NCBI GenBank assembly: GCA_963716725.1
Contig: CAVQUB010000022.1
Span: forward strand, 1-64,000
Length of the DNA stretch: 64,000 nucleotides
Source of the DNA: an uncultured delta proteobacterium
Lineage (GTDB): Bacteria > Myxococcota_A > Polyangia > Polyangiales > Polyangiaceae
Direction of reading: 5' to 3'
Shown here: one piece after another, positions 507-48,390 of the stretch
Numbering within the stretch: the stretch's first letter is position 1
Layout: each line of letters begins with the position of its first letter
The notes under the pieces: generated by a model
Database searches by the model: none
The model's input: the letters and a program-made list of their open reading frames with translations, nothing else
Told to the model about the DNA's origin: nothing
Program-made: the position numbers and the translations under genes

Positions 507-1460
507 ATGACAAGATTAAAACGTCCTCCCTATCACCGTTTAGAAATACACCTCCTCAGAGAGGGCATAGTCGAATCCATCCATCAGGGAGAGGTTGTCG
601 TTGCTGATAATAGGGGTAGAATCTTAGCCGTAGCAGGAGACACTGAAACTGTTTCTTTTATGCGATCAGCAATGAAACCATTTCAAGCCTTAGCGGTTAC
701 AAGTACAGGGGTAATGGAAAGATTTGACTTAAATGATAAAGATTTAGCAATCATTTGCAGTTCCCATCAAGGTAGTATAGAACAAGCTAGACAAGTATTT
801 AATATTTTGTGGCGGGCAGATATTGAAGCAAGTTACTTAAAATGTCCCATTCCCAAAGGAAAAAACAGTGCTTTACAGTCTAACTGTTCAGGGAAACACG
901 CAGGAATGTTGGCAGTCTGTCAACAGCGAAACTGGAATTTGGATACCTATTTTCATCGCTCTAATCCCGTACAGCAATTAATCTTACAGAAGATAGCCGA
1001 ATTATTGTCCATTCCCGGGGCAGAAATTATGACTGCTAGAGACGATTGTGGTGTGCCCACTTATGCTCTAGAATTAGGACAAATGGCGACTTTATACGCA
1101 AAATTGGCCTCTGGTAATAGTATCGACTTAGAAAGAATTGTCCGCGCTATGACAAATCATCCGACAATGGTAGCCGGAGAAGGTGCTTTCGACACGGAGT
1201 TAATGAATTTAACCGACGGAATGTTGGTGAGTAAATCCGGTGCTGAAGGTATCCAGTGTATTGGTAATATCGGTCAAAATATGGGTTTAGCCATAAAAAT
1301 CCTTGACGGTAGTAAACGGGCAAAATATGCTACTGCCATTCATATTTTAAAACAAATGGGATGGATTACCCCTACCGTTGCAGAAAATTTAGGGGATAAG
1401 TTTTTGCGTATTGACGACTATAAACGCCTAGAAGTAGCAGGAGAATTATCTCTGCTTTAG
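507..1460 (+). CDS. L-asparaginase II family protein
   Basis: RSAMKPFQA, CSSHQG, NCSGKHAGML and SKSGAEG motifs; 317 aa. Confidence 0.88.
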   Translation: MTRLKRPPYHRLEIHLLREGIVESIHQGEVVVADNRGRILAVAGDTETVSFMRSAMKPFQALAVTSTGVMERFDLNDKDLAIICSSHQGSIEQARQVFNILWRADIEASYLKCPIPKGKNSALQSNCSGKHAGMLAVCQQRNWNLDTYFHRSNPVQQLILQKIAELLSIPGAEIMTARDDCGVPTYALELGQMATLYAKLASGNSIDLERIVRAMTNHPTMVAGEGAFDTELMNLTDGMLVSKSGAEGIQCIGNIGQNMGLAIKILDGSKRAKYATAIHILKQMGWITPTVAENLGDKFLRIDDYKRLEVAGELSLL

Positions 1461-33164: not shown

Positions 33165-33815
33165 CTGCTCGCCTTGTCGCCGGCGCGCACCGCGAGCCCG
33201 CCGCCGGTGCCTCCTGGCACGAAGGTCAGCGCTACGTCTGCGGCCAGCGCTAGCAGGTTGGTGCCGAGGTTTCTTCGTTGCCGAAGACGTTGTCCGCGCC
33301 GATGCGGTACAAGTCGTAGGCTACGAAGCCGATGTCGACGATGGTGTCGAAGATGCGACCGGAAGGGTCCACCTGAGTGATGGGGTCGCCGCCGCCGTAG
33401 CTGTAGGGCAGCAGTCTGCGCGGATCGCCGATGCCCTCCTCCGGCTCGAACACGGCGACCGGATCTGGGCTGACAAAGATCCCGAGCTCCGGTCGATAGG
33501 CGCGCGCGCCAAAGTCGCTGAGGCCTGAGCCTGCATCACGTTCCTTGCCCACGAAGGACCGCGGCTCCGCGCGTCCACTGTGAAAACGCTCGGCGCCATA
33601 GGCGTGGTAGGAGACCTGGCGGACCACGTCTCCCTTCGCGCTTGTCACCGCGAGAGGACTGCCGTGGAGATCGGCGTGGAAGAAGACCGCGGACGCCGGC
33701 ACCTGCGTGATCGGCTTGCCCTTGTCTGGGTCGTCACCGCCTCCGCACGACAGAACGAGTGCGGCCGCCGCGAGGCTGCTCAGATGTTGGTTGCGCGCAC
33801 GGCCGAACGCCGCAG
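33165..33815 (-). pseudogene. Fragment of a second RHS protein (lipobox-like insert, RHS core, pre-toxin segment; toxin tip missing)
   Basis: HADLHGSP..Y.AYG..FVGKERD..SGL.DFGARAY.PELG.F.SPDP..YSY...DPITQVDPSG. After a frameshift near 33270 it reads NLGTNLLALAADVALTFVPGGTGGG up to the att repeat. Confidence 0.8.
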
Positions 33816-34203
33816 CGTCCTTGGCGTGCTTCGTCCAGTGGCCCAACGCGTTCTGAACGGGTGTCTTTGCTGACGTGGACGTCCGGAGGGGCCGTTTCGC
33901 CCCCGCCCGCGTCACGACCCCCTTCACAACCGCGCGCACGCCATCCGCACCCGCCCGCAGCAGCTTCGGAGCCGCGCGTACTGCGGCGGGCAGCGCGCGC
34001 ACCAGCGCGATGCCGTCCAGCAGGGTGGCCGCGAACAGCAGTCCCTCCGCCGCGCCCTCAGCCCCTTTGCGGTTGAGCTGCTGCACTTCGCGCAACTCGG
34101 CGCTCGAGCAACCGCGCTGGGCTGTGCAGCGCTCGAGCTCTTGGTGGGCAACGAGACCGTCCGGCTCCCGCCCATCGCGGTCCACCAAGGTGCTCGGGTT
34201 GTT
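33816..34203 (-). pseudogene. Orphan RHS cassette 2 (shared pre-toxin segment plus truncated toxin tip)
   Basis: 304-bp repeat followed by AKRPLRTSTSAKTPVQNALGHWTKH, then an in-frame jump into a different RHS. Confidence 0.7.
33900..34203 (-). repeat. 304-bp repeat, copy 3
   Basis: Near-identical to 35074-35377 and 36522-36825, with a few SNPs. Confidence 0.95.
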
Positions 34204-34388: not shown

Positions 34389-34745
34389 CTACTCGACGTA
34401 GTCCTCGAATTCCCAATGCCCCAGCCGAGACAGCTTGACCGCAATGGCTTTCCAGTCGGGCCCATCACAGGAGTCACAGAACTCACTGATATACGTGTGT
34501 ATCGATGAATAGTCGTATTGCTTCATGACAAGATGATGCCGCGGAAAGAAGACAGGCACGCTGGACAGTTGCTCCTCTACCCAACGCGGGCTGCACACCA
34601 CGATGTCAAAAGACTCTTCGCCAGCTCCTCCCAATGGGCCAATCATCGCTTGGACGAGCACGGCAAAACGGGCCGGGTCCTCCGGCACCAACTCGGCCAG
34701 ATCGTCTGCATCAGGGCTGTGAAGCCGCTTCAGTTCTGCCTTCAC
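34389..34745 (-). CDS. Imm8 family immunity protein
   Basis: KAELK.LHSPD, MIGP...GEESFDIVVCSP.W, RHHL and LSRLGHWEFEDY motifs; GTG start overlaps the toxin TGA. Confidence 0.85.
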   Translation of the reverse strand: MKAELKRLHSPDADDLAELVPEDPARFAVLVQAMIGPLGGAGEESFDIVVCSPRWVEEQLSSVPVFFPRHHLVMKQYDYSSIHTYISEFCDSCDGPDWKAIAVKLSRLGHWEFEDYVE

Positions 34746-35377
34746 GGTGCTACCGGCGCAGACACGATATCGAGGTGTCCATTGGACGTCCATCGACCAG
34801 AAGGCACGGCGCGCTGTTCGAAGTTCGATTGAACGCGACCCAGCTTGGGTTTCCAGGACGGAGGCCGAAACTGGCGAAGTCCGTTTGTGCTGATCAACGT
34901 CTTGCCATCGCTGGCCACCCTGGCCCCTTTTCCGACCCAAGCATGCCCGAGGCGTTCCGCCGTCGCCGCGTCCGCCGCCCCCAATCCGAAGTTTCCACTT
35001 CCCTTGGCCGCGTCGCGCAGAATCCCCATCTCTCGGGCGGCAGCTTCGCTCATCTTTCGCCGGCCTCCGCTGCCCCCCGCCCGCGTCACGACCCCCTTCA
35101 CAACCGCGCGCACGCCATCCGCACCCGCCCGCAGCAGCTTCGGAGCCGCGCGTACTGCGGCGGGCAGCGCGCGCACCAGCGCGATGCCGTCCAGCAGGGT
35201 GGCCGCGAACAGCAGTCCCTCCGCCGCGCCCTCAGCCCCTTTGCGGTTGAGCTGCTGCACTTCGCGCAACTCGGCGCTCGAGCAACCGCGCTGGGCTGTG
35301 CAGCGCTCGAGCTCTTGGTGAGCACCGAGACCGTCCGGCTCCCGCCCATCGCGGTCCACCAGCGTGCTCGGGTTGTT
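34742..35377 (-). CDS. Orphan RHS cassette 1: toxin C-terminal domain, BECR-like RNase candidate
   Basis: Shared pre-toxin segment followed by GNFGLG..WVG..DG..L.S..GLRQFRPP..Q.NFE..SNGHL. Confidence 0.7.
   Translation of the reverse strand, partial: NNPSTLVDRDGREPDGLGAHQELERCTAQRGCSSAELREVQQLNRKGAEGAAEGLLFAATLLDGIALVRALPAAVRAAPKLLRAGADGVRAVVKGVVTRAGGSGGRRKMSEAAAREMGILRDAAKGSGNFGLGAADAATAERLGHAWVGKGARVASDGKTLISTNGLRQFRPPSWKPKLGRVQSNFEQRAVPSGRWTSNGHLDIVSAPVAP
35074..35377 (-). repeat. 304-bp repeat, copy 2
   Basis: Direct sequence identity with copies 1 and 3. Confidence 0.95.
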
Positions 35378-35510
35378 TTGTTGCCCCCCGTGCTTACCGG
35401 CGCTTCACGGCGGGGCGTGCTCGCTTCGCTCCGCGCGCCCCGTGCCCCCAAGCGTCGTGCTCGGCCGCCGACGCTTCAGCGCGAACTACGACGCGCGGCC
35501 TGCGCGCGCC
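35378..35510. repeat. 133-bp multi-hairpin element preceding orphan cassette 1
   Basis: Stems CGGGGCGTGC/GCGCGCCCCG and AAGCGTCG/CGACGCTT; duplicated at 34204-34337. Confidence 0.9.
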
Positions 35511-35764
35511 CCGGAGGCACCGGCGGAGGGGGCGGCGCAGATGCAATCGACGAGAAATTGCGCGCCGTCCAGCGCCGTGGCCTTGCCTGCGACAAAGTCC
35601 TCACCCAACCCGTGGCCCCTGCCTCGGGTCGCTTCGCCCAGCGCTTTCCGTTCCTCACCGAGCGGTCCGGCGAAGGGCTCTGCCACGGATGTGCCGAGAA
35701 TCAAACTTGAAGTTCCCCTCGCGCGCGCCACGCTCGCCGCGGTCGTTCTTGCACTGCGCAGCCC

Positions 35765-36190
35765 TCATTGAAGCGATCTCATGAGAGCCACGCCCCGCTC
35801 TTTGGTGGCGTGCTCAAGACGGGCTCTCGTGAAACGTTCTTGATCGCCTGATAGCTTCTCGCGCAACTCGGCGATGACGGTACCCAACCGCTCCAGCACC
35901 TGCTCCAATGGTTCAGGCTCGGTCTTCGCAAGCACATCTTCAATCGCGCGCCAACCCATCGCGATCTCAACGTCGTCAAACTGGTAAAACTTCTCCGGAC
36001 AGCATATCGACGCAACGTCAAGAAACTCCTGACCTCGGTCTCTGACTATCTTCAGGAGGATCCCGTTGACGCACAGCACCACTTCGCCGTCGCCAAACTG
36101 GGATCTCTCCTCGTAGCTGACAACTTCAACAGGCTCGATACTGGCTGCTGCCGCAAGCCTCCGGGCCCGTGCTTCCAAGGACTCGACCAC
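35765..36190 (-). CDS. Putative cognate immunity protein of the main RHS toxin (141 aa)
   Basis: AGGAGG RBS right after the toxin's corrected stop; lower GC; FGD...L.IVRDRGQ.F motif. Confidence 0.72.
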   Translation of the reverse strand: MVESLEARARRLAAAASIEPVEVVSYEERSQFGDGEVVLCVNGILLKIVRDRGQEFLDVASICCPEKFYQFDDVEIAMGWRAIEDVLAKTEPEPLEQVLERLGTVIAELREKLSGDQERFTRARLEHATKERGVALMRSLQ

Positions 36191-36200
36191 GACACTCCTC

Positions 36201-39200
36201 CTAAGGCTTTGACATACGCAGGCCGTCCTCCGCGACCTGAAACCCCTGTGATTTCAGGTACTGCAACTCTCTGGCAAAGAAGCTACCAGCGCGCGCCTGA
36301 CTCAGCCGGGGTTGCCAGGACGATGTCGTCTCCTCTGGCGATCATTCGATCAAGAAACTTCCGGTTCGCTGCCCATTGTTGCGCGGGCGTCATCCTATCC
36401 CAAACCTTCGTTGGGACGTTAAAACGACGTGCACCCAGCTCAGTGGCCTTCTCGACGTACGCAGGGAAGTGGCCAAGTACCGTCTTGCCTGGCGCCGTTC
36501 CAGCCCCGGGCCCGCCCCTCGCCCCCGCCCGCGTCACGACCCCCTTCACAACCGCGCGCACGCCATCCGCCCCCGCCCGCAGCAGCTTCGGAGCAGCGCG
36601 TACTGCGGCGGGCAGCGCGCGCACCAGCGCGATGCCGTCCAGCAGGGTGGCCGCGAACAGCAGTCCCTCCGCCGCGCCCTCAGCCCCTTTGCGGTTGAGC
36701 TGCTGCACTTCGCGCAACTCGGCGCTCGAGCAACCGCGCTGGGCTGTGCAGCGCTCGAGCTCTTGGTGAGCACCGAGACCGTCCGGCTCCCGCCCATCGC
36801 GGTCCACCAGCGTGCTCGGGTTGTTGGCCGCGTATGAATACGCCGTGTGCGAGGGCGAGAGAGCCGCCACTCGCTCGGGGCTATCGAGCCACAACGGATC
36901 CGGGCTGATGAAGCCGCCAATGTCGGGCGAGTAGTACCGCGCCTCCATCAGGTCCAAGCCGACGCTGCGGTCGCGCGGTGTGCCGGCGAAGACACGGTTT
37001 TCGTCGGGTGCTTCGTCCCAGCGGGTCTCACCGAATGAGTAGGTCGCGCTTGAACCCTGGGAGACGCCGGCGCCGTTCGTGATTTCCGTGAGGGAGCCGA
37101 CGCGGTCGGATAGCAGCAACGTGTCGGCTGCGGTCAGAGTGACCACCGTACCTTCCGCATCAGGCTTCTTGTCTGCGTCTGCGCCGGAGCACGCGACCGC
37201 CAATCCGATCGCCATGGTCGCGCCGACCGCGCGCTGTAGTCGAGACCAGGAAGCGGCCGAAATTCTGTGGAAGACGCGCTTGGCGAGCAGCACCCCAAAC
37301 AAGATCCCGAGCGCCATCCAAAGCCCGTTCAAGAAGACGCGCAGCCTCTCGACCTTCTGCGCATGCGGCTTGGATGGCGGCGGCGTCGGGACGGCTGCGC
37401 CCGCAGCCGCCACGCCATTCGTTTCCGAGAGGCGTGCGACGCGCTTTCCGTCCACCACGAGGTAGCGTACGAGTTTGCCGTCCACGACCTCCGACCAATC
37501 GTCGAGGAAGTGCGTGGTGCGTGGCGTGCCGGACGCAGCGCGCTCAACTCGGGTGACTCGTGAGCCATCGGCGGCAAAGGTATTCTCGACAGTGGCGCCG
37601 CTCTTTGTCGTGACACGGACCACGTGGTTCGCTCCGTCCCACTCCAGCGTGCGCTCGCCGTCACTCACGAGGCGGCCCCGGGCGTCGTATGCCAACGAAC
37701 GACCCTGCTGCTTCGCAACGGCGTGTGGCCGCGAGGGCTCGTAGGCAAGGCTGCCAGCATTGAGTGCCGCAACGCTGCTGGTGCGCGACAGCAGGCGACC
37801 CGCCGCAGAGTACTCCGAGTTCGAGTGGCCCCAGGCGCCTTCGCTGCGCACCAAGCGGTACAGATTGTCGTAGCTGTACCGTACGCTCCGTGAGCGTTCT
37901 TCCGGGATCCCGCTGCGAAGATCGCTCTGCTCGGCCACGTTGCCCACGGCGTCGAGTGTCCAGGCGATGTGCTGCACAACTGCGCCATCCGGCAATACGA
38001 CTTTGTGAGCATTCAGACGACGGTCCTGGTCATATCCGAACAGTTCGCGCACGCCCGTGGAGTACTCGCGCACGGTCTCCGTCTCGTCCGCATCGTGGTG
38101 GAGGGTCACGGCGTCGCGACCGAGACCTGCCAAGAGTCCACGCCCGTCGTAGCGCAGCCGCACGCTGGATCCGTCCGGGTATACGTGAAGACTCTCACGG
38201 TCTTGGGCGTCATATTGCCGGCTCGTGTCGTATCGCTTCGTGCCGATCCGAACGCTGCGCTGCGCCACTCGCCCGCGTTCGTCATAGCTGAGCACCGTCG
38301 TCCCGCTCGGATCTTCGACCCGTGCCAAGCGCCCGAGCGCATTCGTACCTTCATCGAAGAATCGGGTCACCTCGGACTGTCCATCGCCGTCCCAGTCCTC
38401 GCGCACCGTGCGCCCCGCGAGGTCGTGTTCGAAGTGACTTGCCTTCTTGTCGGGATACCGGTGTTCAACCAGGTTGTCGGACGCGTCGTAGATGTAGCTA
38501 TGCGTGCCTGCATTGGGATCCTTGGCTTCAATTCGCCTGCCTCGTCCGTCGTAAGCGTAGCTGGTCGCGTGCCCTTCCGCGTCGATACGTTTCGCGAGCT
38601 CGCCGGCGACAGTCCAAGTGTACTTCTGGGCGACCGCACTACCGCCGAGGGTGAATTCTCGGCGGACCACACGGTCCTGCCCGTCCCGAGTTTCGACGAC
38701 GGGAGTGTGTTCGTATGGCGAAGCGGGATCGGCCTGAGAGGCGTCCCAGCTCCGGGTGACCAACGGGCCGTAAGACTGCTTGGTGACGCGCCCAGCATGC
38801 GAGCGTGTGCTGACAACTCGGGTCGCAGCGTCTCGCCAAGAGTCGTCGCCAGGTGATGGGTCGGCAAGTGCCTTCGAATCCACGAAATCCACATCGACCA
38901 AGCGCGGACGCAACTTCCGCCGGGTTTCCCCGCGAGCGTCGTGCACCGCGACTTCGCTCAAGACCCACCGGCCTTCGTCGGCCTCGAACAGCGTGGCACG
39001 TGGGCGATTCGCGCCGTCATGCACTGTGATGAACCGAGTAGCTTCCTCGCCGCCACTGACGATGCGGTTGGTCGTGATCACGCGGGAAATCGGCGCGGCG
39101 AGCTCGTAGGCGTAGCCGACGGTAGGGCGCTTGGCCGAGTCTCCTGGCCGGGCGATCCCCGTGATTCGCCCGAGAGAGTCATATTGATAGGCAGTTGCGA

Positions 39201-41420
39201 CGCCGTTGAAGTCTTCGAATCGAATGATCGCACCGAACCGTGCGTCGTATTGCACGCGCTGAGTCAGTCGACGCTGGCCCGTCTCCACATGCTCTGCGAC
39301 CAGCGCAACCCCCGCGTCGTCCCAATCGAAAGCGCGCACTCCACTCTTCGCGTCCCGCGTCTCCACCGGATTCCCGTGCGCGTCGTATTTCGATGCGACC
39401 ACCTCATCAAATTCGTCCAACCCCGGCCCGACCCACGCTTCTTGTCGCGTCAAGTCACCGCGGGTCAGTTTGCCCAAGGGCATGCCGACGAAGGGATCGC
39501 CATCGTAGTAGCTGCGGGTCATGCGCACGCGGGCGCCGCTGGCGTCGGTGAGCTCTTCGGTGGCTGGGCGGCCTAGGATCCACTCCGTGGCGTCGTTGGC
39601 GAAGGTGCGGACGGTGAGCGCTTCGTCGGTGCCGACTAGTTTGTCGCCGGCAACGACTTCACCCCAGCGGTATTCGGCGATCTGGTTGCCGTAGCTGTCT
39701 TCCTCCCACTCGGTGAGCGTGGTGCGGGCTGCGGAAGGGTCCGTGCCTTCGATGTATTCGACGCGCTCGCTGGATTTGTAGCCATAGCTGATGGGCGTGC
39801 CGTCCCCGGCGCTGGCCACGGTCTGCGAGGTGTATTCGTTCGCGGTGCGATCGAAAATCTGGCCCTGGTCGTTGCGACGTTCGTGGGTCAGCACGGCGCC
39901 GCGCAGGGAGCGCAGGGTGAGCCCCAGGTCGAAGCTGGTGTCGGTCAGAAGCGTGGGCGTGTATTCGTCGCCCAGGGCACGCTCGACGCCACCCGCGAAG
40001 CCGGCGAAGGTGCGCTCGACCGCGTCCCACGCTCCGTCACGGTACAGGTACTCGGTCGCCATCAGTGGATCGCCGAGGGACATGTCCGTCTCGACGCGGG
40101 ACACGACGGGCATGGCGATGTTCATGCGGGTGCTCCAGCCTTTGCCGGCGTCGCGGGCGCGGGCGGCGTGCTGGGCGGCGGGCTCGTAGCTGATGCGGGT
40201 GATCTTGCCCAAGCCGTTGTCGATGACCGTCATCAGACCGGCGCGTCCCTTGGGGAACAGCTCCAAATAGCGCCACGCGCTTTCAGGCGATCCGCTGGTG
40301 TCGACCCACACGATGTCCGTCGTGCCCGAGCCGTTCATGTCGGCGAAGCCCGCAAACGTGCCCGGCGCCTTGTTCGGTGTGCCGCTGATCTGGACGACGT
40401 CTGCGAACTGCCCGGCGGCGGTGGCCCGCGCCACGGAAACCTGGGTGACGCCGAGGTGCACCAGATCGACGAGGCCGTCGCCGTTCAGATCCACGAGTTG
40501 GTACGGATCGTCTTCGCTGAAGGCCGGCACGCCGCTCGCGGAGGCTGAGGCCTCGAACACGCCGCGGCCGCGGCCTAGCCAGTAGCTCAGGGCACCCGAG
40601 CGCAGGAATGCCAAATCGAGCAGCCCGTCTCCGTTGACGTCGGTGAGATGCGTCTTGCCGTTCGAGAAGCGAAGTTCTTGCTTCGGATCGATGACGCCGA
40701 TGGTCTTGGGCGACGCGAAGTCCTTGCCGCCGAGGTTTGTTCCGACCACGAGGCCGGCTGCGCTGGTCGCGACGAAGTCGATGCGTCGGTCACCGTCCAG
40801 ATCGGCGAGGCGAACGTCCGGATCCTCGAAGGACAAGTTCGGCACCGTCGGGATGGCCACGCTCGGCGACCAATGCGTGGCGTCGAGGCCGGGGAAGTAG
40901 CGGAACTGGCTGATCCCACTCTTGGCAACCAGATCGATGGCGCCGTCACCATCGAAGTCCGCGAGGCTCACACCCTGCTGTTCGAGGCTGACCGACGGCG
41001 AATCTGCCGCCTGCCAATCGACCGCGGGCTGCCAGCTCTTGCCGTCGTGGTTGACATAGCTGCGGAAGCTGCCGGCTTTGCCGACCAGCAGGTCGGGCAG
41101 ACCGTCGCCGTTGAGATCAGAGAGCGCGACGCTGGGCTCCACCGGCGAGCGACCAGGCGGCGAGGTCATGCTCACCAGCTCACCGCTCTTTGTCAGCTCG
41201 CCGCCGGTGTAGCTGTAGCGCAGCGTGGGCAACGCCGTTTCGCCGTCGGCGCCCACCAGCTGGATGCTCTCGAGTAGCGAGCGTGCGCCGGTGGCGTAGC
41301 CAAGTGCGTAGCGTCGAACCAGTTCGACGCCCACGCGTACCTCGATGTGTGCGAGGCGCTTTTCAAGACGCTGCTCGATACCGCTCGAGAACAGGACGTG
41401 CGAGTCGGGCCTCCGTTCAA
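36201..41420 (-). CDS. TcB/TcC-like FG-GAP + YD-repeat + RHS-core polymorphic toxin; 5'-truncated; frameshift near 36300
   Basis: Repeated D.NGDG..D FG-GAP motifs, YD repeats, ARYYSP..G.FISPDP and YSYAANNP..LVDRDG. The frame stays open upstream through ERRPD with no start codon. The tip continues in another frame as GSFFARELQYLKSQGF...KP* at 36201. Confidence 0.88.
36522..36825 (-). repeat. 304-bp repeat, copy 1 (within the main RHS gene)
   Basis: Encodes NNPSTLVDRDGR...VVTRAG. Confidence 0.95.
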
Positions 41421-41572
41421 TGAGAGGCCCTATCGGGCTCAGCGTCAGGCGATTGCGTGATTTCTCGCTACGTGATCGCGAGTCGCGACGCGCTCCATCG
41501 AGCTCGGAATAGTCCGCAACCCGCCTGATGACCGACCCGAGGGGGAGGGGAAATCACTCTGGAGGTCCGTCA

Positions 41573-43171
41573 ATGCGTCCGCTCTTCGTCTGCAAGTTCA
41601 TCCGCGTGCTGCCTTTCGTGGTCTGGGGTCTGACCGTCGCCTGTGGTTCAGATGACCCATCCGCGGCGTCGACCCACTGCACTGGGGCCTCGTGCTCCCC
41701 CGGCGAAGGCAAAGACGCCGGCATCGAAACGGACGACGGTGGGAGCTGGGCGAAACCCGATGCAGCGAGCTGCACCCCGTCGGGCGCTGACGTACCCGAC
41801 GACGACTTCGCAGATCAGAACTGCGACGGGATCGACGGCGATCTCGAGAAGGCCATCTTCGTCGCGCCTTCGGGCAGCGACGCGGCGCAAGGCACCCGCG
41901 AGAGCCCGGTGAAGACCCTGAACAAGGCGACCGCGCTGGCGGCGGCGAGCGGCAAAGACGTCTACGCTTGCAACGGCAGCTACGCGGAGGCCCTGGTCGT
42001 CAGCTCGGCCGTGCGCCTGTACGGCGGCTACGACTGCAAGAACGGCTGGGCTCGCAACAAAGAACTCGCGGTGATCGCGCCCGCTTCGGGCAAAGCGCTG
42101 ACCATCGAGAAGGTCACGGGGGTCGTCGTCGATCGCTTCGAGTTGCGCGCCCCCGACGGAGACGCTGCCGGCCAATCGTCCATCGCCGCGGTGGTGCGCG
42201 CTTCGCAGGGCGTGCGCTTCAACCGGGTCGTCTTCGACGCGGGCGAAGGCGCCAGCGGGCTGGCAGGCGAGAACGCCGTGGCGGTCACCGCGCCGGCCCC
42301 CGCGGGGACGGAGGGCACGGCGATCAGCGTGACCAAGTGCTCGACCACCGCGACCGGTGAGTGTCTTGGGGCCCCCAAGGGTGGCAAGAACTACGCGGAA
42401 CATTCCTGCGGCGCCGCCACGACGCGTGGAGGCTTCGGTGGACACGGCGGCAACGTGAAGGGCAATACCTCAACGGGTGACGGCCAAGCGGGGTTGAACA
42501 GCGCACTTGGCGGGAAGTTCCCCTTCGCTGGCAGCCCGGGCGCGCCCGGCGCGGTCGGCGCCCACGGAAAAGCAGGTGACGCCATCGGCACGGTCGTCAG
42601 CGGCGAGTACGTCGCGTCCAACAGCGGGTCGTCGGGAGTGCTCGGCACGCTCGGCCTGGCGGGCGGCGGAGGAGCCGGCGGAAAGAGTTCTTGGGGCTGC
42701 GGTTCGTTCTGTCACGACGTCGGATCCGGCGGCGGACAGGGTGGATATGGAGGCTGCGGTGGCGGCGCCGGCGGCGGAGGAGCTGGCGGCGGCGCATCCA
42801 TCGCGCTGTTGGTGATCGACAGCGACGTCACCCTCGCGTGGAGCACCCTGCGAACGGCCGGCGGTGGCAGTGGTGGCGCGCCCGGCGCGGGAGCTGCGGG
42901 CCAGCCTGGTGGCGCCGCGGGCAAGGCCGGCACCCACGTGAACACCATCTTCCAGGGTCAGCCCGGTGGCGCGGGCGGGCCGGGTGGTGAAGGTGGCGCG
43001 GGCGGACCCGGCGGTGGTGGCCCGTCGATTGGTGTGCTGGTTGCGGGCAGCGCGCCCAAGACCGAAGCGGTCACCTTCGACCTGGGGCCCGGCGGCGCGG
43101 GTGGAAAAGCAATGGCCGGCGCCAGCGGCGCGACCGGCAAGAGCGGCGACGTCGTGCAGGTGGGCCCGTGA
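41573..43171 (+). CDS. Gly-rich (PGRS-like) lipoprotein with DxNCDG metal-binding motif and DUF1565-like/beta-helix domain
   Basis: GGAGG RBS, LTVAC lipobox, DQNCDGIDG and IFVAPSGSD...GT...P..T motifs. Confidence 0.75.
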   Translation: MRPLFVCKFIRVLPFVVWGLTVACGSDDPSAASTHCTGASCSPGEGKDAGIETDDGGSWAKPDAASCTPSGADVPDDDFADQNCDGIDGDLEKAIFVAPSGSDAAQGTRESPVKTLNKATALAAASGKDVYACNGSYAEALVVSSAVRLYGGYDCKNGWARNKELAVIAPASGKALTIEKVTGVVVDRFELRAPDGDAAGQSSIAAVVRASQGVRFNRVVFDAGEGASGLAGENAVAVTAPAPAGTEGTAISVTKCSTTATGECLGAPKGGKNYAEHSCGAATTRGGFGGHGGNVKGNTSTGDGQAGLNSALGGKFPFAGSPGAPGAVGAHGKAGDAIGTVVSGEYVASNSGSSGVLGTLGLAGGGGAGGKSSWGCGSFCHDVGSGGGQGGYGGCGGGAGGGGAGGGASIALLVIDSDVTLAWSTLRTAGGGSGGAPGAGAAGQPGGAAGKAGTHVNTIFQGQPGGAGGPGGEGGAGGPGGGGPSIGVLVAGSAPKTEAVTFDLGPGGAGGKAMAGASGATGKSGDVVQVGP

Positions 43172-43197
43172 CTGCGCGCTGTGGAGGAGCAAAGAAG

Positions 43198-46100
43198 ATG
43201 AACACACACATTCGCTCGCTGATGGTCACGGCGATCAGCTCCGTGCTGATCAACTGCGGCAGCGATGCCGCCTCGCCCACCAAGTCGGGGCCGCCCGTCC
43301 CCATCGCCGACAGCCCCGCCTGCGTCATCAGCGCGGACTGTCCCGCCGGTTCGCACTGCAATCTCGGGGAGTGCGTGCAGGAGTGCAACGCCGAGGTGTC
43401 GTGCTCCGGAAAGCTGAGTTGCTCTCCGCGGGCGCGCTGCCTTCCAGCGTCCGCGCCCGACGCCGATCCCGAGCCCACGACGAGCTACGCAGGAAGCGTG
43501 AGTGCGGCTTCGTCGCTGAGCCTGCTGACCGAAGCCGACAACAAGCTCTCGATTGAGCTCTCGACCACGTCGACCGAAACGGTCCGGTACCGAGTCGCGC
43601 TGGTGGCACCCCACTTGTCGATCGCCGAGCCGCGCGGCGAGTTCGTGGGCAAGACCACGGTGTCGCTCGAGGTGCACCCGGAGCTCGCCGCGTCGCTCGA
43701 CCAACCCGGCACAGTGCGCATCCTCACCACCCTGGGCGAGGTCGTGGTCGATGCGCCCGTCCACGTGGGCATTACAGGCCGCTACCAGGGCTCACTGAGC
43801 TACGATGGCGACGCGCTCGCGCTCGGCGCCGCCCGCCTGTCGCTGGATCTGTTGGAGAAGAACGGCAACGTCTCGGCTCGCGTCGACGGCAAGACGTCGC
43901 TCTTGTTCCCCGCCACGGCCGCGGGCGATGCCACGGGCCACGGAAGCTTCGATGGCAAGACCATCTCGCTGACCCTCGCGCAGCGCATCGAGAAGGACTT
44001 CGGCAACGATCGGAATCGCTTCGCGCGCGAGATCGGTCGTCGGATCACCTTCGCGCTCGAGCCCGCTGGCGGCGGGAGGGTCGGTGGGACCTTCAAAGAG
44101 GTCATCTACGGCCTCTTCAGCGATCCCGTGGAGCTCACTGGCCGCGTGAGCTTCGAGCTGATCCGCGGCGGCGGCGCGCCCGAGTTCACGCTGGCCGCTG
44201 CTCCGGAGATGCCCGCGGGCCTGTCGGTGCCGCCCGTCGATACGTCGGCCTTCGGCTTCGTTGACACTTGTTTCTCCGTAAATGGCTCGGTGACCTGCCC
44301 GACCAAACTGTCGGATCCAGCGGCTTGCGCCCCGGCCGTGGAGGCGAAGTTCTACGACCCGCTGAGCGCCAAGCTCGAGAAGAAGGGATCCGGCGCGCTC
44401 CCCATGGCGGACGTCGCGGTTGCTTGCGAGGCGGCGCTCGGGGTCACCACGCTGTCCGGCTTCAGTGGCGACGCGGCGGGCTGCGCCCTGCCCCCGGCCC
44501 TGGCCTGCGCGACGGCGGCGTCGATCAAGGGTTCGGCTGCCAGCAGCGCGACCGCACGCGCCTTCCATCGTCAGCTCGCCCGCACGCTGGCGCCCGGCTT
44601 GCTGGTCGCGCAAGAGAAGATGGTTCAGGGCCTGTACAAGTCGTTCTCCGAGGGCGCTGCCAAAGAGAGGGACCTCTACCTCCAAGCGCAGGCGGTGCTG
44701 GCTCCGAGTGCCGCGTTCGCGTTGCAGCCGGGGCTGCTCGAGTTCATGCGCAAGACCAGCGCGGGCGACGCTTCGGGAGAGCCGGGCTCCACCGATCCCA
44801 CTGCCAGCGACTTCCCGGCGGCACGCAGCTTCGCGCGGCTCCTGCTCTTGAGCTCGAAGCTGGACGGCGAGCTGGCGCGTCTCGACGGTTCCAACGGTCA
44901 GACCGACCACGCGACGTCGCTGCGACTCGCGCAGGAGCGCGCCGTGATCACCTTCCTCGAATCGGCAGCGCTGGCGAAGGTCTTGGAAACCTGGGGGGCG
45001 TCACCACCGGCGTCGGTGGGCGTGGTGCTCAGCGGAGTGCTGGGTCCGGTGGACACGGGCTTTGCTGCGCTGGTGCAGGGGCCGTCGCGCTTCGGCATCC
45101 CGGAGGGTTTTGTGCCCTTCGTCTATCGCGCGGAAGATGCCGGCAAGGCCCCGACCAACTTCGAGCAGATGCTGGTCATGGCCCAGACCCCCGTGGCCCA
45201 GGCGGTGGATGATCAAGCCGCGTTCGAGAACAACAAGCGGACCTACGAACAGAACGAGCAGTCGCTGAAGAGCGAGCTCTCCCAGGTTCGCAGCAGCTTC
45301 GATCTCTCGCTCAAGCAGATCTGCGGCGCGGGCTTCGACCCGGACGCGATCTCGGCGCCCGGAGATTGGAAGAGCTGTGGCGCGGGCAAGACGGGCGAGC
45401 TGGGCAGCCTGTTCTTGGACATCGAGCAGTCGCTGGCCCGCCTTCAGTCTGCGGAGAACCGCATCCACGGCGCGAAGCAGAAGATGGCCATTTCGCGCGA
45501 CCAGTTGGCGGGCACCCAGGCCGTGCACGCCAGCACGCTGCGCTTCATCGACGCGCAGGGCCAAATGCTCGAGGCCATCACCTGGAGCGAAGGCATCATC
45601 AACGCCGCCCAGACCGCGATCAACACCTCGTCCGAGGCGAGCGTCTTGAACTTTGGCGCTCCGGCTGCGATGGCCGGCCTGAACGCCATGCTCGAAATGC
45701 AGAAGACCGCCCTCGCCGTCGCGCGCCAGCGGCTCCAGACCGCGCAGACGATGAAGTTCACGGCGGACGCCGCGCGCATCGAGCTGATCAACGGCATGGC
45801 CGACATTCAGAAGCAGGCCATCGACCTGGCACAGCTCGAGGTCGACATCCATCAAGACGTGATCGGCGTGCTGCAATCCAAGCTGCGGCTGTCCAACACC
45901 TTCGAGCAGGCGAAGGAGCTTCACGAAGAGCGCTCGCGCTCCCTCGCGCTGGTGTCTCAGAGCCCCGCCAAGGATCCGAGCTATCGGCTGCTGCGCGACT
46001 CCTTCGCGTTGGCCGCGCTGTCGTCTCGGGCCGACGCGCAGCGCTCGCTTTACCTGAGCGGGCGCGCGCTCGAGTACGAGATCAACCAGCCGCTCACGGC

Positions 46101-46834
46101 ACTGCCCGGCGCGGTGCTGGGCGCGCGCGACGCTGGTCGGCTCAAGAAGCTGTCCAACTGCCTGACGCAGATCCACGACGCTCACCGGGTGGCCTACGGA
46201 TCGCCCCAGCAGTACCAGACCGAGGTCAGCCTGCGGCGCACGCTCGGGATCACCGGGCCGCGCACCGACGAGGTGACTGGGCAGACGCTCACCGAGGGCG
46301 AGCTCTTTCGCATGGAGCTCTTGAAGAATCAGAACCTCGACGGCGCTGGTGGCGTCGGCCTCACCTTCGGGACGAACCTCCAGCCCGGCAACGGGCTCTT
46401 CCCCACCGACGTCTGTAGCGACAAGGTGGCGAGCGTCCGGGTGCAGCTCGTGGGCGACTTCTTGGGCGACGCCGCTGCGCAGGTGAACCTCTCGCTCTCG
46501 GGCGGCAGCGTGATGCGCCAATGCTCGGGCGACGCGCTCACGAACTGGTCGCTGGGCGCGGGCAACGGCGCCGGGTCGAGCGGCTTCGCGGTCATCCAGG
46601 CCGGGGTCAACGGCTGGAGCACCGCGCCCCCGAACACCTCGCTCTTCGGTCAGTCCGTGGCTCGCGCTTCTTGGCGAGTCGTGCTTCCCGGTCCAGCCGA
46701 CGCTCCCAGCAACGCGGATCTCGGATTTGACTCACCTCGAGGACATCGTGTTCGAGCTGACGCACAAGGCGCTGCCTCGCAGCAGCGCGCCCCTCGCGGT
46801 CGATGTCACCTGCCTCGCCGCCATCGGCGGGTGA
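43198..46834 (+). CDS. Large lipoprotein (about 1210 aa) with Cys-rich N-terminus, long coiled coil and TcA-like C-terminal domain; +1 frameshift near 46723
   Basis: GGAGG RBS, VLINC lipobox, CVISADCPAGSHC. Removing one G near 46723 gives ..SWRVVLP..DLDLTHLEDIVFELTHKA..* at 46834 and separates it from the next gene. Confidence 0.65.
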
Positions 46835-46902
46835 TTGGGAGCCTCCGCATGTCCCAGCCACAAAACCCTCAACTCGATGCGAGAGCTGCCCGATGCGTGC
46901 GC

Positions 46903-48390
46903 ATGAAGACTCGGATCCTGTTCACTGGTCTGTTCGCCCTACTCAGTGCCGCCGGCTGCGGCGACGATCCCGGGGCCTCCGCCGGCGTGTCGGGTGCAAA
47001 GCCCGGCGCGGATGCCGGTCCGAACCTCCCGGACGGCGGGAGCCAGGCCGACGGCTCTGGTTCGTGCACGCCGCAAGCCACCGACGACCCCGACAGTGAG
47101 GGGCTGGACGAGAACTGCGACGGCGCCGACGGGGTCATCGGCGTCGACGTCTACGTCGATCCGAGCGCGGGGTCGGACACCAACTTGGGCACGCCCTCCG
47201 CGCCCCTCCGCTCGTTGAAGTCGGCCATCTCGCTGGCCACCTCACGCGGCGGGAGTGTGCTGCTCGGCAAGGGGCAGCTCACCCTCGACACGCTGGACGC
47301 GAGCGGCAGCTACGTGATCTACGGCGGGTACTCCTCGACCTTCCTCGGCGCGCGCAAGCGCGAGAGCTCGATCCTTGCACCGACGAAAGCGCAGGGGCTC
47401 TCCATCACATCTGCCAGCTCCGTGACTCTGGTCAGCCTGAGCGTCATTGGGACCAACGCTGATGATCAGGTCGTGACCGCGCATGCATTGCGAACCAGCG
47501 TCGACCAACTGAACTTGGTGGACGTGGAGGTGCGTGCCGGCAACGGAACGCCCGGAGCTGCCCTGGGTGCAGCCGGCGCAGCGGGGGAGCCCGGGATCCA
47601 CGCAACCGGTGCCTTCGGTGGCGTCCTGAAGTGCAAAGGCGCCGCGCAGCCCTCGGTTGGGAACGGAGCTGCGGTCGGCAAAATGAACGCGCAGGGCGGC
47701 AGTCCCGGCAACTGCGCGACCAAGACGCCCGCTCAAAGCGGCGCGGCTGGTCAGGCGGGGACGCATGGCGCGCACGCCAGCAAGTTGCCGTCGATCAAGG
47801 ACGGCATGGTGCAGTGGCCGTCCGGGAGCGCGGCTCCGGACAACGCTGGGCCCGGCTACGGCGGCGCAGGTGGCGCGACCTGCACGGCGCTCGGCTCCGG
47901 CGGTGGCGCCGGGAGCGGCGGTTGCTCGGGCGGACCGGGCGCGGGTGCCGGGAGCGGCGGCGGCTCCGCCGCGGTGGTGGTGCTCGCCGGAAAATTGGTC
48001 CTCACCAGGTCGTCACTTCGCACTGGGTTCGGCGGCAACGGTGGCAGTGGTGCTGCCGGTGGCGAAGGCGGTCCGGGTGGCCTGGGGGCCAAGCCCACGT
48101 GCGACATCGGGATGGACTGCAAGAAGGTCGAAGCCGAGTGCCAGCCCGCTTCGGATCCCTACAAGCTCAACTGTGCGGGCTGGGGCGGAACAGGTGGCCC
48201 GGGAGGAAAGGGCGGGTACGGCGGTGCGGGTGCCGGTGGTTGGAGTATTGGCGTGGTGACCACCGGTCCGGCCAGCGTCGATCTCGACGCTGAGACGACC
48301 TTCGAGCTCGGAGCACCAGGCAACGGAGGAGACGGCGCCACCACGCGCGCGCCCGACGGCGAGAAACACAAGACCTGGGCGGTGCCCTGA
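46903..48390 (+). CDS. Gly-rich lipoprotein, paralog of 41573..43171
   Basis: MKTRILF...AAGC lipobox, DENCDGADG and VYVDPSAGSD.N.GT..AP motifs; similar C-terminus. Confidence 0.75.
   Translation: MKTRILFTGLFALLSAAGCGDDPGASAGVSGAKPGADAGPNLPDGGSQADGSGSCTPQATDDPDSEGLDENCDGADGVIGVDVYVDPSAGSDTNLGTPSAPLRSLKSAISLATSRGGSVLLGKGQLTLDTLDASGSYVIYGGYSSTFLGARKRESSILAPTKAQGLSITSASSVTLVSLSVIGTNADDQVVTAHALRTSVDQLNLVDVEVRAGNGTPGAALGAAGAAGEPGIHATGAFGGVLKCKGAAQPSVGNGAAVGKMNAQGGSPGNCATKTPAQSGAAGQAGTHGAHASKLPSIKDGMVQWPSGSAAPDNAGPGYGGAGGATCTALGSGGGAGSGGCSGGPGAGAGSGGGSAAVVVLAGKLVLTRSSLRTGFGGNGGSGAAGGEGGPGGLGAKPTCDIGMDCKKVEAECQPASDPYKLNCAGWGGTGGPGGKGGYGGAGAGGWSIGVVTTGPASVDLDAETTFELGAPGNGGDGATTRAPDGEKHKTWAVP

Follow-up and report, generated by a model that had tools for sequence, protein, structure and literature searches.

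How does an RHS cocoon toxin that lacks the parts of a type VI secretion system (T6SS) reach its target? The route is an open question, for which Zhang et al. (2012, PMC3482391), in the text available to us, name only an 'export pathway'. A locus that raises it lies in a stretch of 64,000 nucleotides (nt) from an uncultured polyangial myxobacterium (contig CAVQUB010000022.1, assembly GCA_963716725.1), hereafter the window, where a minus-strand RHS gene stands head-to-head with three plus-strand lipoprotein genes (table 1). We consider it probable that this locus encodes a Tc-toxin-like (Tc, toxin complex) two-part delivery system, composed of a short, lipid-anchored counterpart of TcA and a TcB-TcC fusion, which would inject a toxin into other bacteria. 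An earlier note, made from the sequence alone, had described an FG-GAP/YD/RHS gene facing three lipoprotein genes, a toxin tip with a small open reading frame (ORF) downstream, and a central lipoprotein gene with one frameshift, long helices, an apolar stretch and a C-terminal SW...LP-type motif. All of these features were found where it had placed them.

The central lipoprotein, the proposed A subunit, has no Pfam or NCBIfam family and no sequence match in the PDB. Pfam searches at E ≤ 10 with the window protein and with P0284, a public protein of 1211 amino acids (aa), returned nothing but a chance-level DUF7107 match and no TcA family. The protein belongs to a family of 458 representative clusters at E ≤ 1e-3 (146 at E ≤ 1e-30), whose full-length members have ~1,200–1,300 aa. 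Its SW...LP-type motif matches the C-terminal consensus of this family, W.L.IP....P.N.DLDL....DIVL...H.A.

For structure prediction we used a natural intact orthologue from one of the relative genomes (these are labelled G002, G003, G015, G017, G026, G029 and G038), namely residues 21–1210 of the G002 protein, which is 83% identical to the window protein, with an alignment of 92 rows. The model has a predicted local distance difference test score (pLDDT) of 87.2 and a predicted TM-score (pTM) of 0.77. When it was compared with the PDB by Foldseek, ranks 1–22 were all TcA chains (TcdA1, XptA1, XptA2, TcdA4, YenA2 and TcaA-TcaB; E 2.9e-12 to 2.5e-5). VIA-align placed model residues 607–1171 (~565 residues) collinear with TcdA1 2000/2008–2516, that is, up to the last residue of that chain, with Z 10.6–11.8.

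The C-terminal 251 aa, folded alone, gave a pLDDT of 89.9, and Foldseek ranks 1–23 were again all TcA (E 4e-6 to 1e-3, TMq 0.38–0.49). A scan of 48,161 chains that was independent of Foldseek ranked four TcA entries first to fourth (Z 9.9, 9.6, 9.5 and 7.9), ahead of the first unrelated chain, a furin P domain with Z 7.1. The best match was TcdA1 2327–2516, in an entry holding just that part (Z 9.9, root-mean-square deviation 4.4, 143 aligned residues). The models thus support a central protein that is TcA-like at the level of fold, with a channel-type hairpin and a C-terminal beta domain, as the earlier note had suggested. We file it as a protein that would work like a TcA but stands outside the Pfam TcA families.

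Like the known TcA proteins TcdA1, XptA1/A2, TcdA4, YenA2 and TcaA-TcaB, the central protein has a helical hairpin and then a beta domain at the chain end, and its gene adjoins a TcB/TcC-type gene, with A mostly directly upstream. Its size is near that of the C-terminal halves of split TcAs (e.g., YenA2, 1364 aa), whereas it is only about half as long as a TcA of ~2,500 aa. Further differences are the absence of a TcA Pfam match, a putative lipoprotein signal, and an N-terminal part made of a Cys-rich module and PapD/ASH-like beta-sandwiches. The neuraminidase-like domain, the VRP1/SpvA N-terminal region and the large alpha-helical shell of TcA were not found by Pfam, and the helical domain of the model has only ~275 residues. 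The apolar stretch at the hairpin tip corresponds to residues 814–832, which contain no D, E, K or R in 45 of the 92 aligned rows, mainly those of closer relatives; an apolar loop of the N.GAP type is kept in relatives down to ~35% identity. In addition, the present family occurs in Myxococcota together with immunity genes. Of 1,608 Tc loci, in contrast, 96.4% are in Proteobacteria (82.8% gamma, 13.3% beta) and they lack immunity genes, according to the accessible part of Song et al. (2021, PMC7861908).

Larger relatives of 1,818–2,244 aa, encoded in G026 (C323), G015 (C11) and G038 (C10), share the last ~700 positions of the family profile. These positions comprise the helical domain, the hairpin and the C-terminal domain; the N-terminal parts are longer. 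The larger relatives have no Pfam family, and three of them stand in tandem in G026.

All three plus-strand genes encode at their start a hydrophobic, signal-like segment with a terminal Cys: ...GLTVAC/GSDD in lipoprotein 1, ...VLINC/GSD in the central protein and ...SAAGC/GDD in lipoprotein 3. A Shine-Dalgarno sequence, GGAGGAG, lies upstream of the ATG of the central gene. Lipoboxes were scored by a PROSITE-like pattern rule, with which 69–71 of 91 members of the central-protein family agree. The window protein (...LINC) has a non-canonical lipobox with N at −1 and falls outside the rule; its G002 orthologue reads ...ALWGC/GDD.

The linkage of the A and RHS genes was examined by a profile search of species-representative genomes, in which the RHS N-terminal region was located by tblastn. 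The central-protein family is encoded at 57 loci, almost all of them assigned by title to Polyangiaceae, Polyangiales or Myxococcota. At 38 of them an RHS N-terminus of the SpvB/FG-GAP/TcdB_midN type is also encoded, so that the gene families co-occur elsewhere, a point on which the earlier note had let its proposal depend. The RHS gene lies downstream on the same strand at 34 loci (23 of them ≤600 nt from the end of the match) and upstream on the same strand at two. At another two, the closest relatives of the window (58–59% identity), it lies upstream and divergent as in the window. RHS is present at 30 of the 38 loci that have 3 kb or more of downstream sequence, and at 20 of the 24 for which both flanks reach that length. 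Among 41 related genomes, a match to the A family was found in 12 and a strong one in ~7. In G017 and G029, the A gene is followed by a gene for a SpvB/FG-GAP/TcdB_midN/RHS fusion of ~2,045 aa, the two genes overlapping or abutting, and the order in G002, all on one strand, is RHS, lipoprotein 1, A and lipoprotein 3. This distribution suggests that the A partner belongs to one subclass of TcdB_midN RHS toxins.

The RHS ORF contains FG-GAP, FG-GAP_3, TcdB_toxin_midN, RHS_repeat, YD repeats and an Rhs-associated core. The FG-GAP propeller/TcdB_toxin_midN region is the part that meets TcA in Tc toxins. Apart from SpvB, all domains of the TcB/TcC type are present in the window gene, and SpvB is present in P0282, a public protein, and in the neighbours of the A genes in G002, G017 and G029. 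Domain composition therefore supports a TcB/TcC-type fusion, as the earlier note had proposed; that note had identified the gene correctly but had overlooked that its start, signal peptide and SpvB domain are lost. The first possible start is the GTG at 41334, the frame is open upstream of it, and homology to full-length relatives extends to ~41411, where it ends without a start codon or signal peptide. The full-length neighbours in G002, G017 and G029 have 2044–2107 aa, with a signal peptide and a SpvB domain. P0282 (1980 aa), which falls in the same 90% cluster, is 98% identical to the window protein over 1643 residues from its residue 261 onward, and its 260 extra N-terminal residues include a signal peptide and SpvB.

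Contig sets from other samples (runs X1, X5, X6 and X11) were also compared. Contigs of X1 (record 6) and X6 (record 25) have the same neighbours as the window and ~709 extra bases between 41411 and 41409, which make 234 codons plus 7 bases and are consistent with the missing RHS start, signal peptide and SpvB. A contig of X5 (record 19) spans 40584–41750 without any difference from the window; X5 may be the sample behind the genome assembly and hence no independent witness. The junction at 41410 is a deletion, or less likely a collapse, within a single locus. The head-to-head order is therefore genuine, and the earlier worry about a join of unrelated loci near 41420 falls away. The possibility that the missing RHS N-terminus had been inverted to 34634–35710 was rejected: that segment matches no Pfam family and does not resemble the G002 RHS protein.

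The central gene is interrupted as well. Its frame 1 forms a single 1740-aa ORF (43168–48390), which past ...SWRVVLPGPADAPSN turns to Arg-rich junk running into lipoprotein 3. The +1 frame continues ...DLTHLEDIVFELTHKA... to a stop at 46834, and its text across the break also reads ...DLTHLEDIVFELTHKALPR... Alignment to the G002 orthologue reveals a single additional base in the window at ~46722. Contigs of X1 and X11, from two other studies, do not contain this base, and P0284 is 100% identical to the window protein on both sides of the break, which bears out the single frameshift noticed earlier. The break lies ~38–40 codons before the gene end, and full-length relatives stop ~38 residues past the break point. 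Since the contigs of X5 and X6 do not cover 46722, the frame break could be an assembly error. The 1740-codon ORF could be reported by a gene caller as one fusion protein.

As assembled, the window copy of the locus is probably not functional, and we think it somewhat better than an even chance that this copy is a decaying remnant without present function: its RHS gene has no promoter-proximal 5' end, and the frameshift in its A gene creates an in-frame fusion to lipoprotein 3. The absence of an RHS start, signal peptide and SpvB points this way, as do the extra base at ~46722 and the exact reproduction of the 41410 junction in the X5 contig; a search of the whole genome (84% complete) turned up no SpvB. 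Another RHS remnant, beside a transposase gene on contig C5 of this genome, is also consistent with decay. But X5 may be the source sample, the base at 46722 may be an assembly error, and intact alleles with 98–100% identity exist in other samples' contigs and among public proteins. Moreover, decay would concern this copy and not the nature of the system. The remnant on C5 (14000–33900) encodes 1572 aa without SpvB and with the propeller cut short; genes for a Y2-type transposase and an MqsA-like antitoxin lie nearby, and family hidden Markov models (HMMs) detected no A-like neighbour.

Downstream of the RHS stop, a candidate immunity ORF of 141 aa, orphan cassette 1, the Imm8 gene and orphan cassette 2 follow in this order; the true start of the Imm8 gene is probably downstream of the listed TTG. 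This array reaches ~33250, farther left than the start given in the earlier note, although the features within the range of that note are real. A 300-nt repeat occurs in three copies that are 98–99% identical (table 1), with spacings of 1174 and 1448 nt. An X6 contig joins 35091 to 36541, skipping 1449 nt, and therefore the orphan tip sits on the main RHS gene in that strain. In other runs a contig joint is found at 35396/34224 (span 1173 nt). The joint spans of 1449 and 1173 nt equal the spacing of the repeats, and thus strains differ by recombination between repeats, that is, by tip switching. The tip of P0282 also differs from that of the window despite 98% core identity.

Neither the RHS toxin tip nor the 141-aa ORF has a Pfam family, and in the Atlas both fall only in unnamed clusters (best score 0.90). 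The tips of relatives belong to HNH-type nuclease, barnase-type RNase, TNT and deaminase families in Pfam. A variable tip, an immunity gene and orphan cassettes form the signature of interbacterial polymorphic toxins, so a bacterial target, already favoured by the earlier note, would fit; such array signatures are described for polymorphic toxins acting between bacteria in the part of Zhang et al. (2012, PMC3482391) available to us. In G017 (L014 3256–5988), a TNT-tipped RHS fusion is directly followed by an RHS fragment of 910 aa that has another TNT domain, and this fragment may be an orphan or duplicated C-terminal module.

The usual view of Tc toxins is that of soluble weapons aimed at eukaryotic cells. 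In the proposed system, the RHS protein would be a Sec-exported TcB-TcC fusion enclosing the variable C-terminal toxin. In the A subunit (~1,210 aa), the Cys-rich module and the two beta-sandwich domains probably bind something, the small helical shell would be followed by the long hairpin with its apolar tip as the channel, and the terminal beta domain would dock the propeller of the cocoon. The A lipoprotein would oligomerise, possibly as a pentamer, and the docked toxin would be threaded through the A channel into or across the membrane of another bacterium, presumably upon contact. The beta-sandwich domains and the Gly-rich lipoproteins may serve recognition, the immunity genes would protect kin, and the orphan cassettes would let strains swap tips by recombination. 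TcA itself is pentameric and A, B and C assemble in a 5:1:1 ratio, as stated in the accessible part of PMC3789776. A complex prediction for the RHS propeller and the A C-terminal domain gave a score of 0.00, with controls not run, and is evidence neither for nor against docking.

Several results weigh against this reading. The TcB-binding domain family PF18276, which the earlier note had proposed for comparison, does not match the window protein, P0284 or the genome locus, and of 48 C-termini of the family only one reaches E 0.023, below the cut-off. The family profile compared with PDB sequences gave XptA2 2094–2274 at E 0.8 and YenA2 at E 3.9, none of them significant. Global TM-scores of the whole model are 0.18–0.20, although such low values are expected when a half-size monomer is compared with a protomer of 2,500 residues. 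A Z of ~11 for a largely helical model lies in a possibly generic range, which is why the last 251 residues were folded alone; the TMq of this domain, however, is below 0.5. At 19 of the 57 loci no RHS N-terminus was found, and downstream sequence of 3 kb or more is available for 8 of these. TcdB_midN occurs in 21 of the 41 relatives versus a strong A match in only ~7, and RHS fusions of ~2,530–2,560 aa with TcdB_midN (G002:C1, G002:C2 and G003:C5) have no A-family ORF within 20 kb according to the family HMMs. Finally, with the 5' end of its RHS gene deleted and its A gene frameshifted, the copy in the window cannot work as assembled.

The RHS protein contains an insert between the shell and the Rhs core, in which two hydrophobic helices are joined by a basic loop and the second of them ends ...LAVAC/SG; its internal Cys is Cys1382 in the numbering of the window ORF. 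Of 102 full-length relatives, 91 have an equivalent insert in which a hydrophobic 12-mer precedes a lipobox-like [GAS]-C, and the NCBIfam 'lipo-invert C-terminal anchoring domain' weakly matches the window insert (E 0.035). The insert resembles an internal lipoprotein signal, and judging from its sequence the cocoon may also be membrane-held. It is possible, though we think it rather unlikely, that the A lipoprotein and the BC fusion form one membrane-held envelope machine of Tc-toxin descent. The first helix of the insert would then act as a stop-transfer helix and the second as a true lipoprotein signal, where Lgt and LspA would split the cocoon protein and lipidate the piece comprising core and toxin. 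The machine could fire through the producer's outer membrane from the periplasm or, once outer-membrane lipoproteins had been passed to a neighbour, through the inner membrane of that recipient. If true, such a membrane-held two-part machine would represent a secretion or injection principle not yet described.

The hydrophobic pair with its lipobox in 91 of 102 members, by suggesting a membrane-held cocoon, also lends some weight to an export device, in which a lipoprotein on the inner face of the producer's outer membrane passes the toxin, or displays the cocoon, across that membrane, and the target is entered by other means. Both partners have Sec-type signals, so they would meet in the periplasm, and Zhang et al. 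(2012, PMC3482391), in the text at hand, class toxins with SpvB plus a propeller as 'TcdB/TcaC export pathway'. We regard this explanation as unlikely. Nothing here indicates which membrane the hairpin tip enters; known TcA channels act on the target membrane, with injection into target cells described in the available parts of the literature, and the N-terminal beta-sandwich domains resemble binding modules, a better fit to recognition of a target. Decidedly unlikely is a mere anchor or scaffold, in which the lipoprotein tethers the cocoon through its C-terminal domain, the hairpin is a stalk, and the toxin is released or enters by another route such as outer-membrane exchange between myxobacteria: linkage and the resemblance of the docking domain fit it equally well, the hairpin tip is apolar only in closer relatives, and Pfam finds in this protein of 1,210 aa neither the neuraminidase-like domain nor the large shell domains that power TcA injection, but the hairpin and C-terminal domain together are collinear with the whole TcA channel module, beyond the docking domain, and the N.GAP-type loop is kept far down the family.

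Injection into other bacteria by a Tc-like pair thus remains the reading that we prefer, and it can be compared with systems already described. Like TcB-TcC and natural B-C fusions, the intact alleles have SpvB, an FG-GAP propeller, TcdB_toxin_midN, RHS repeats, an Rhs core and a variable tip. Unlike them, the present protein is a single polypeptide of ~2,000 aa with a Sec signal, has the conserved internal hydrophobic pair and lipobox before the Rhs core, and has tips of the interbacterial type with immunity genes and orphan cassettes. The 'TcdB/TcaC export pathway' toxins are the class to which the present RHS protein belongs, sharing a signal peptide, SpvB, an integrin-like propeller, RHS and polymorphic tips; as far as the available text of Zhang et al. 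(2012, PMC3482391) goes, the class includes delta-proteobacteria and a Sorangium example. That text contains no 'TcdA' and describes no TcA-like partner or internal lipobox; the supplementary files were outside the search.

T6SS Rhs effectors, which are mounted on PAAR or VgrG, also have an RHS cocoon, a polymorphic tip, an immunity gene and orphan cassettes, whereas the N-terminus of the present protein is of the TcB type and not PAAR. The whole genome (84% complete) yielded no match to a PAAR or VgrG family, which extends the earlier remark that neither is visible in the window. Bacterial teneurin-like proteins, which are common in Myxococcota, are YD-shell toxins that come with immunity genes and are themselves predicted lipoproteins. 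Their delivery machinery was stated to be unknown in 2026, according to the part of PMC13018210 available to us; the present protein differs from them by its propeller of the FG-GAP/TcdB type. Full-text literature searches found no paper on a TcA-like lipoprotein partner in Myxococcota. With the predicted fold of a TcA channel and docking domain, the large unannotated lipoprotein family described here may be a testable candidate translocator for RHS cocoon toxins. For structural work the family may offer a Tc-type channel that is smaller and simpler, and it may shed light on the origins of Tc toxins.

Table 1. Features of the RHS-lipoprotein locus, by position in the window (minus-strand array first), and domains of the model of the G002 orthologue, by model residue.
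Feature	Position	Strand	Basis
Orphan cassette 2: conserved pre-toxin segment (…DRDGREPDGL…), second RHS-core-like piece, different C-terminus	33250..34188	−	ORF text; PF03527 RHS E 9.4e-5, below cut-off; repeat copy 33900-34199
Immunity gene (Imm8) of orphan cassette 1	34389..34940	−	PF15586 E 4.3e-34, 117.5 bits, residues 68-181
Orphan toxin cassette 1: shared pre-toxin segment, distinct ~100-aa tip	34742..35359	−	ORF text; repeat copy 35074-35373
Candidate immunity ORF, 141 aa, 92 nt downstream of RHS stop	35765..36190	−	By position only
5'-truncated fused gene for RHS cocoon of TcB/TcC type, 1683 aa	36283..41334	−	Pfam and NCBIfam matches
RHS C-terminal region: conserved pre-toxin segment of ~75 aa, then variable tip of ~90 aa	36286..36783	−	Repeat copy 36522-36821
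Rhs-associated core domain	36793..37041	−	TIGR03696 E 3.6e-14, residues 1432-1514
Hydrophobic-pair insert just before Rhs core	37189..37338	−	Sequence; family comparison
FG-GAP beta-propeller and TcdB_toxin_midN region	39994..41163	−	PF01839, PF13517, PF12256 positions
Junction where ~709 nt of other strains' contigs are absent	41409..41411	.	Contigs of X1, X6 versus X5
Lipoprotein 1: Gly-rich, DUF1565 (beta-helix N-terminus), ORF open from 41528	41572..43171	+	PF07602 E 2.2e-5
Central lipoprotein, predicted TcA-like subunit, frame break at ~46722	43198..46834	+	Fold model; contig and protein comparison
Long helices including hairpin (model H633-688, H712-788, H808-898); apolar tip 45637-45693	45154..45951	+	Model
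C-terminal beta domain like TcB-binding domain of TcA, split by frame break	46204..46834	+	Domain model; structure searches
Lipoprotein 3: Gly-rich, without family	46903..48390	+	ORF; signal-like start
Two beta-sandwich domains	model residues 76-301		
Helical domain (~275 residues)	model residues 337-611		
Helical hairpin, tip formed by apolar stretch	model residues 712-788 and 808-898		
Beta domain	model residues 983-1172		

The G+C content of the region is 64–72%. The two Gly-rich lipoproteins show no significant similarity to each other by BLASTP, and both match one NCBIfam model weakly. In the Atlas, lipoprotein 1 falls only in unnamed clusters of Myxococcota, with DUF1565 in 30% of one cluster. 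The A gene is immediately preceded on its own strand by a gene resembling lipoprotein 1 or 3 at 31 of 36 evaluable loci, and immediately followed by one at 10 of 43.

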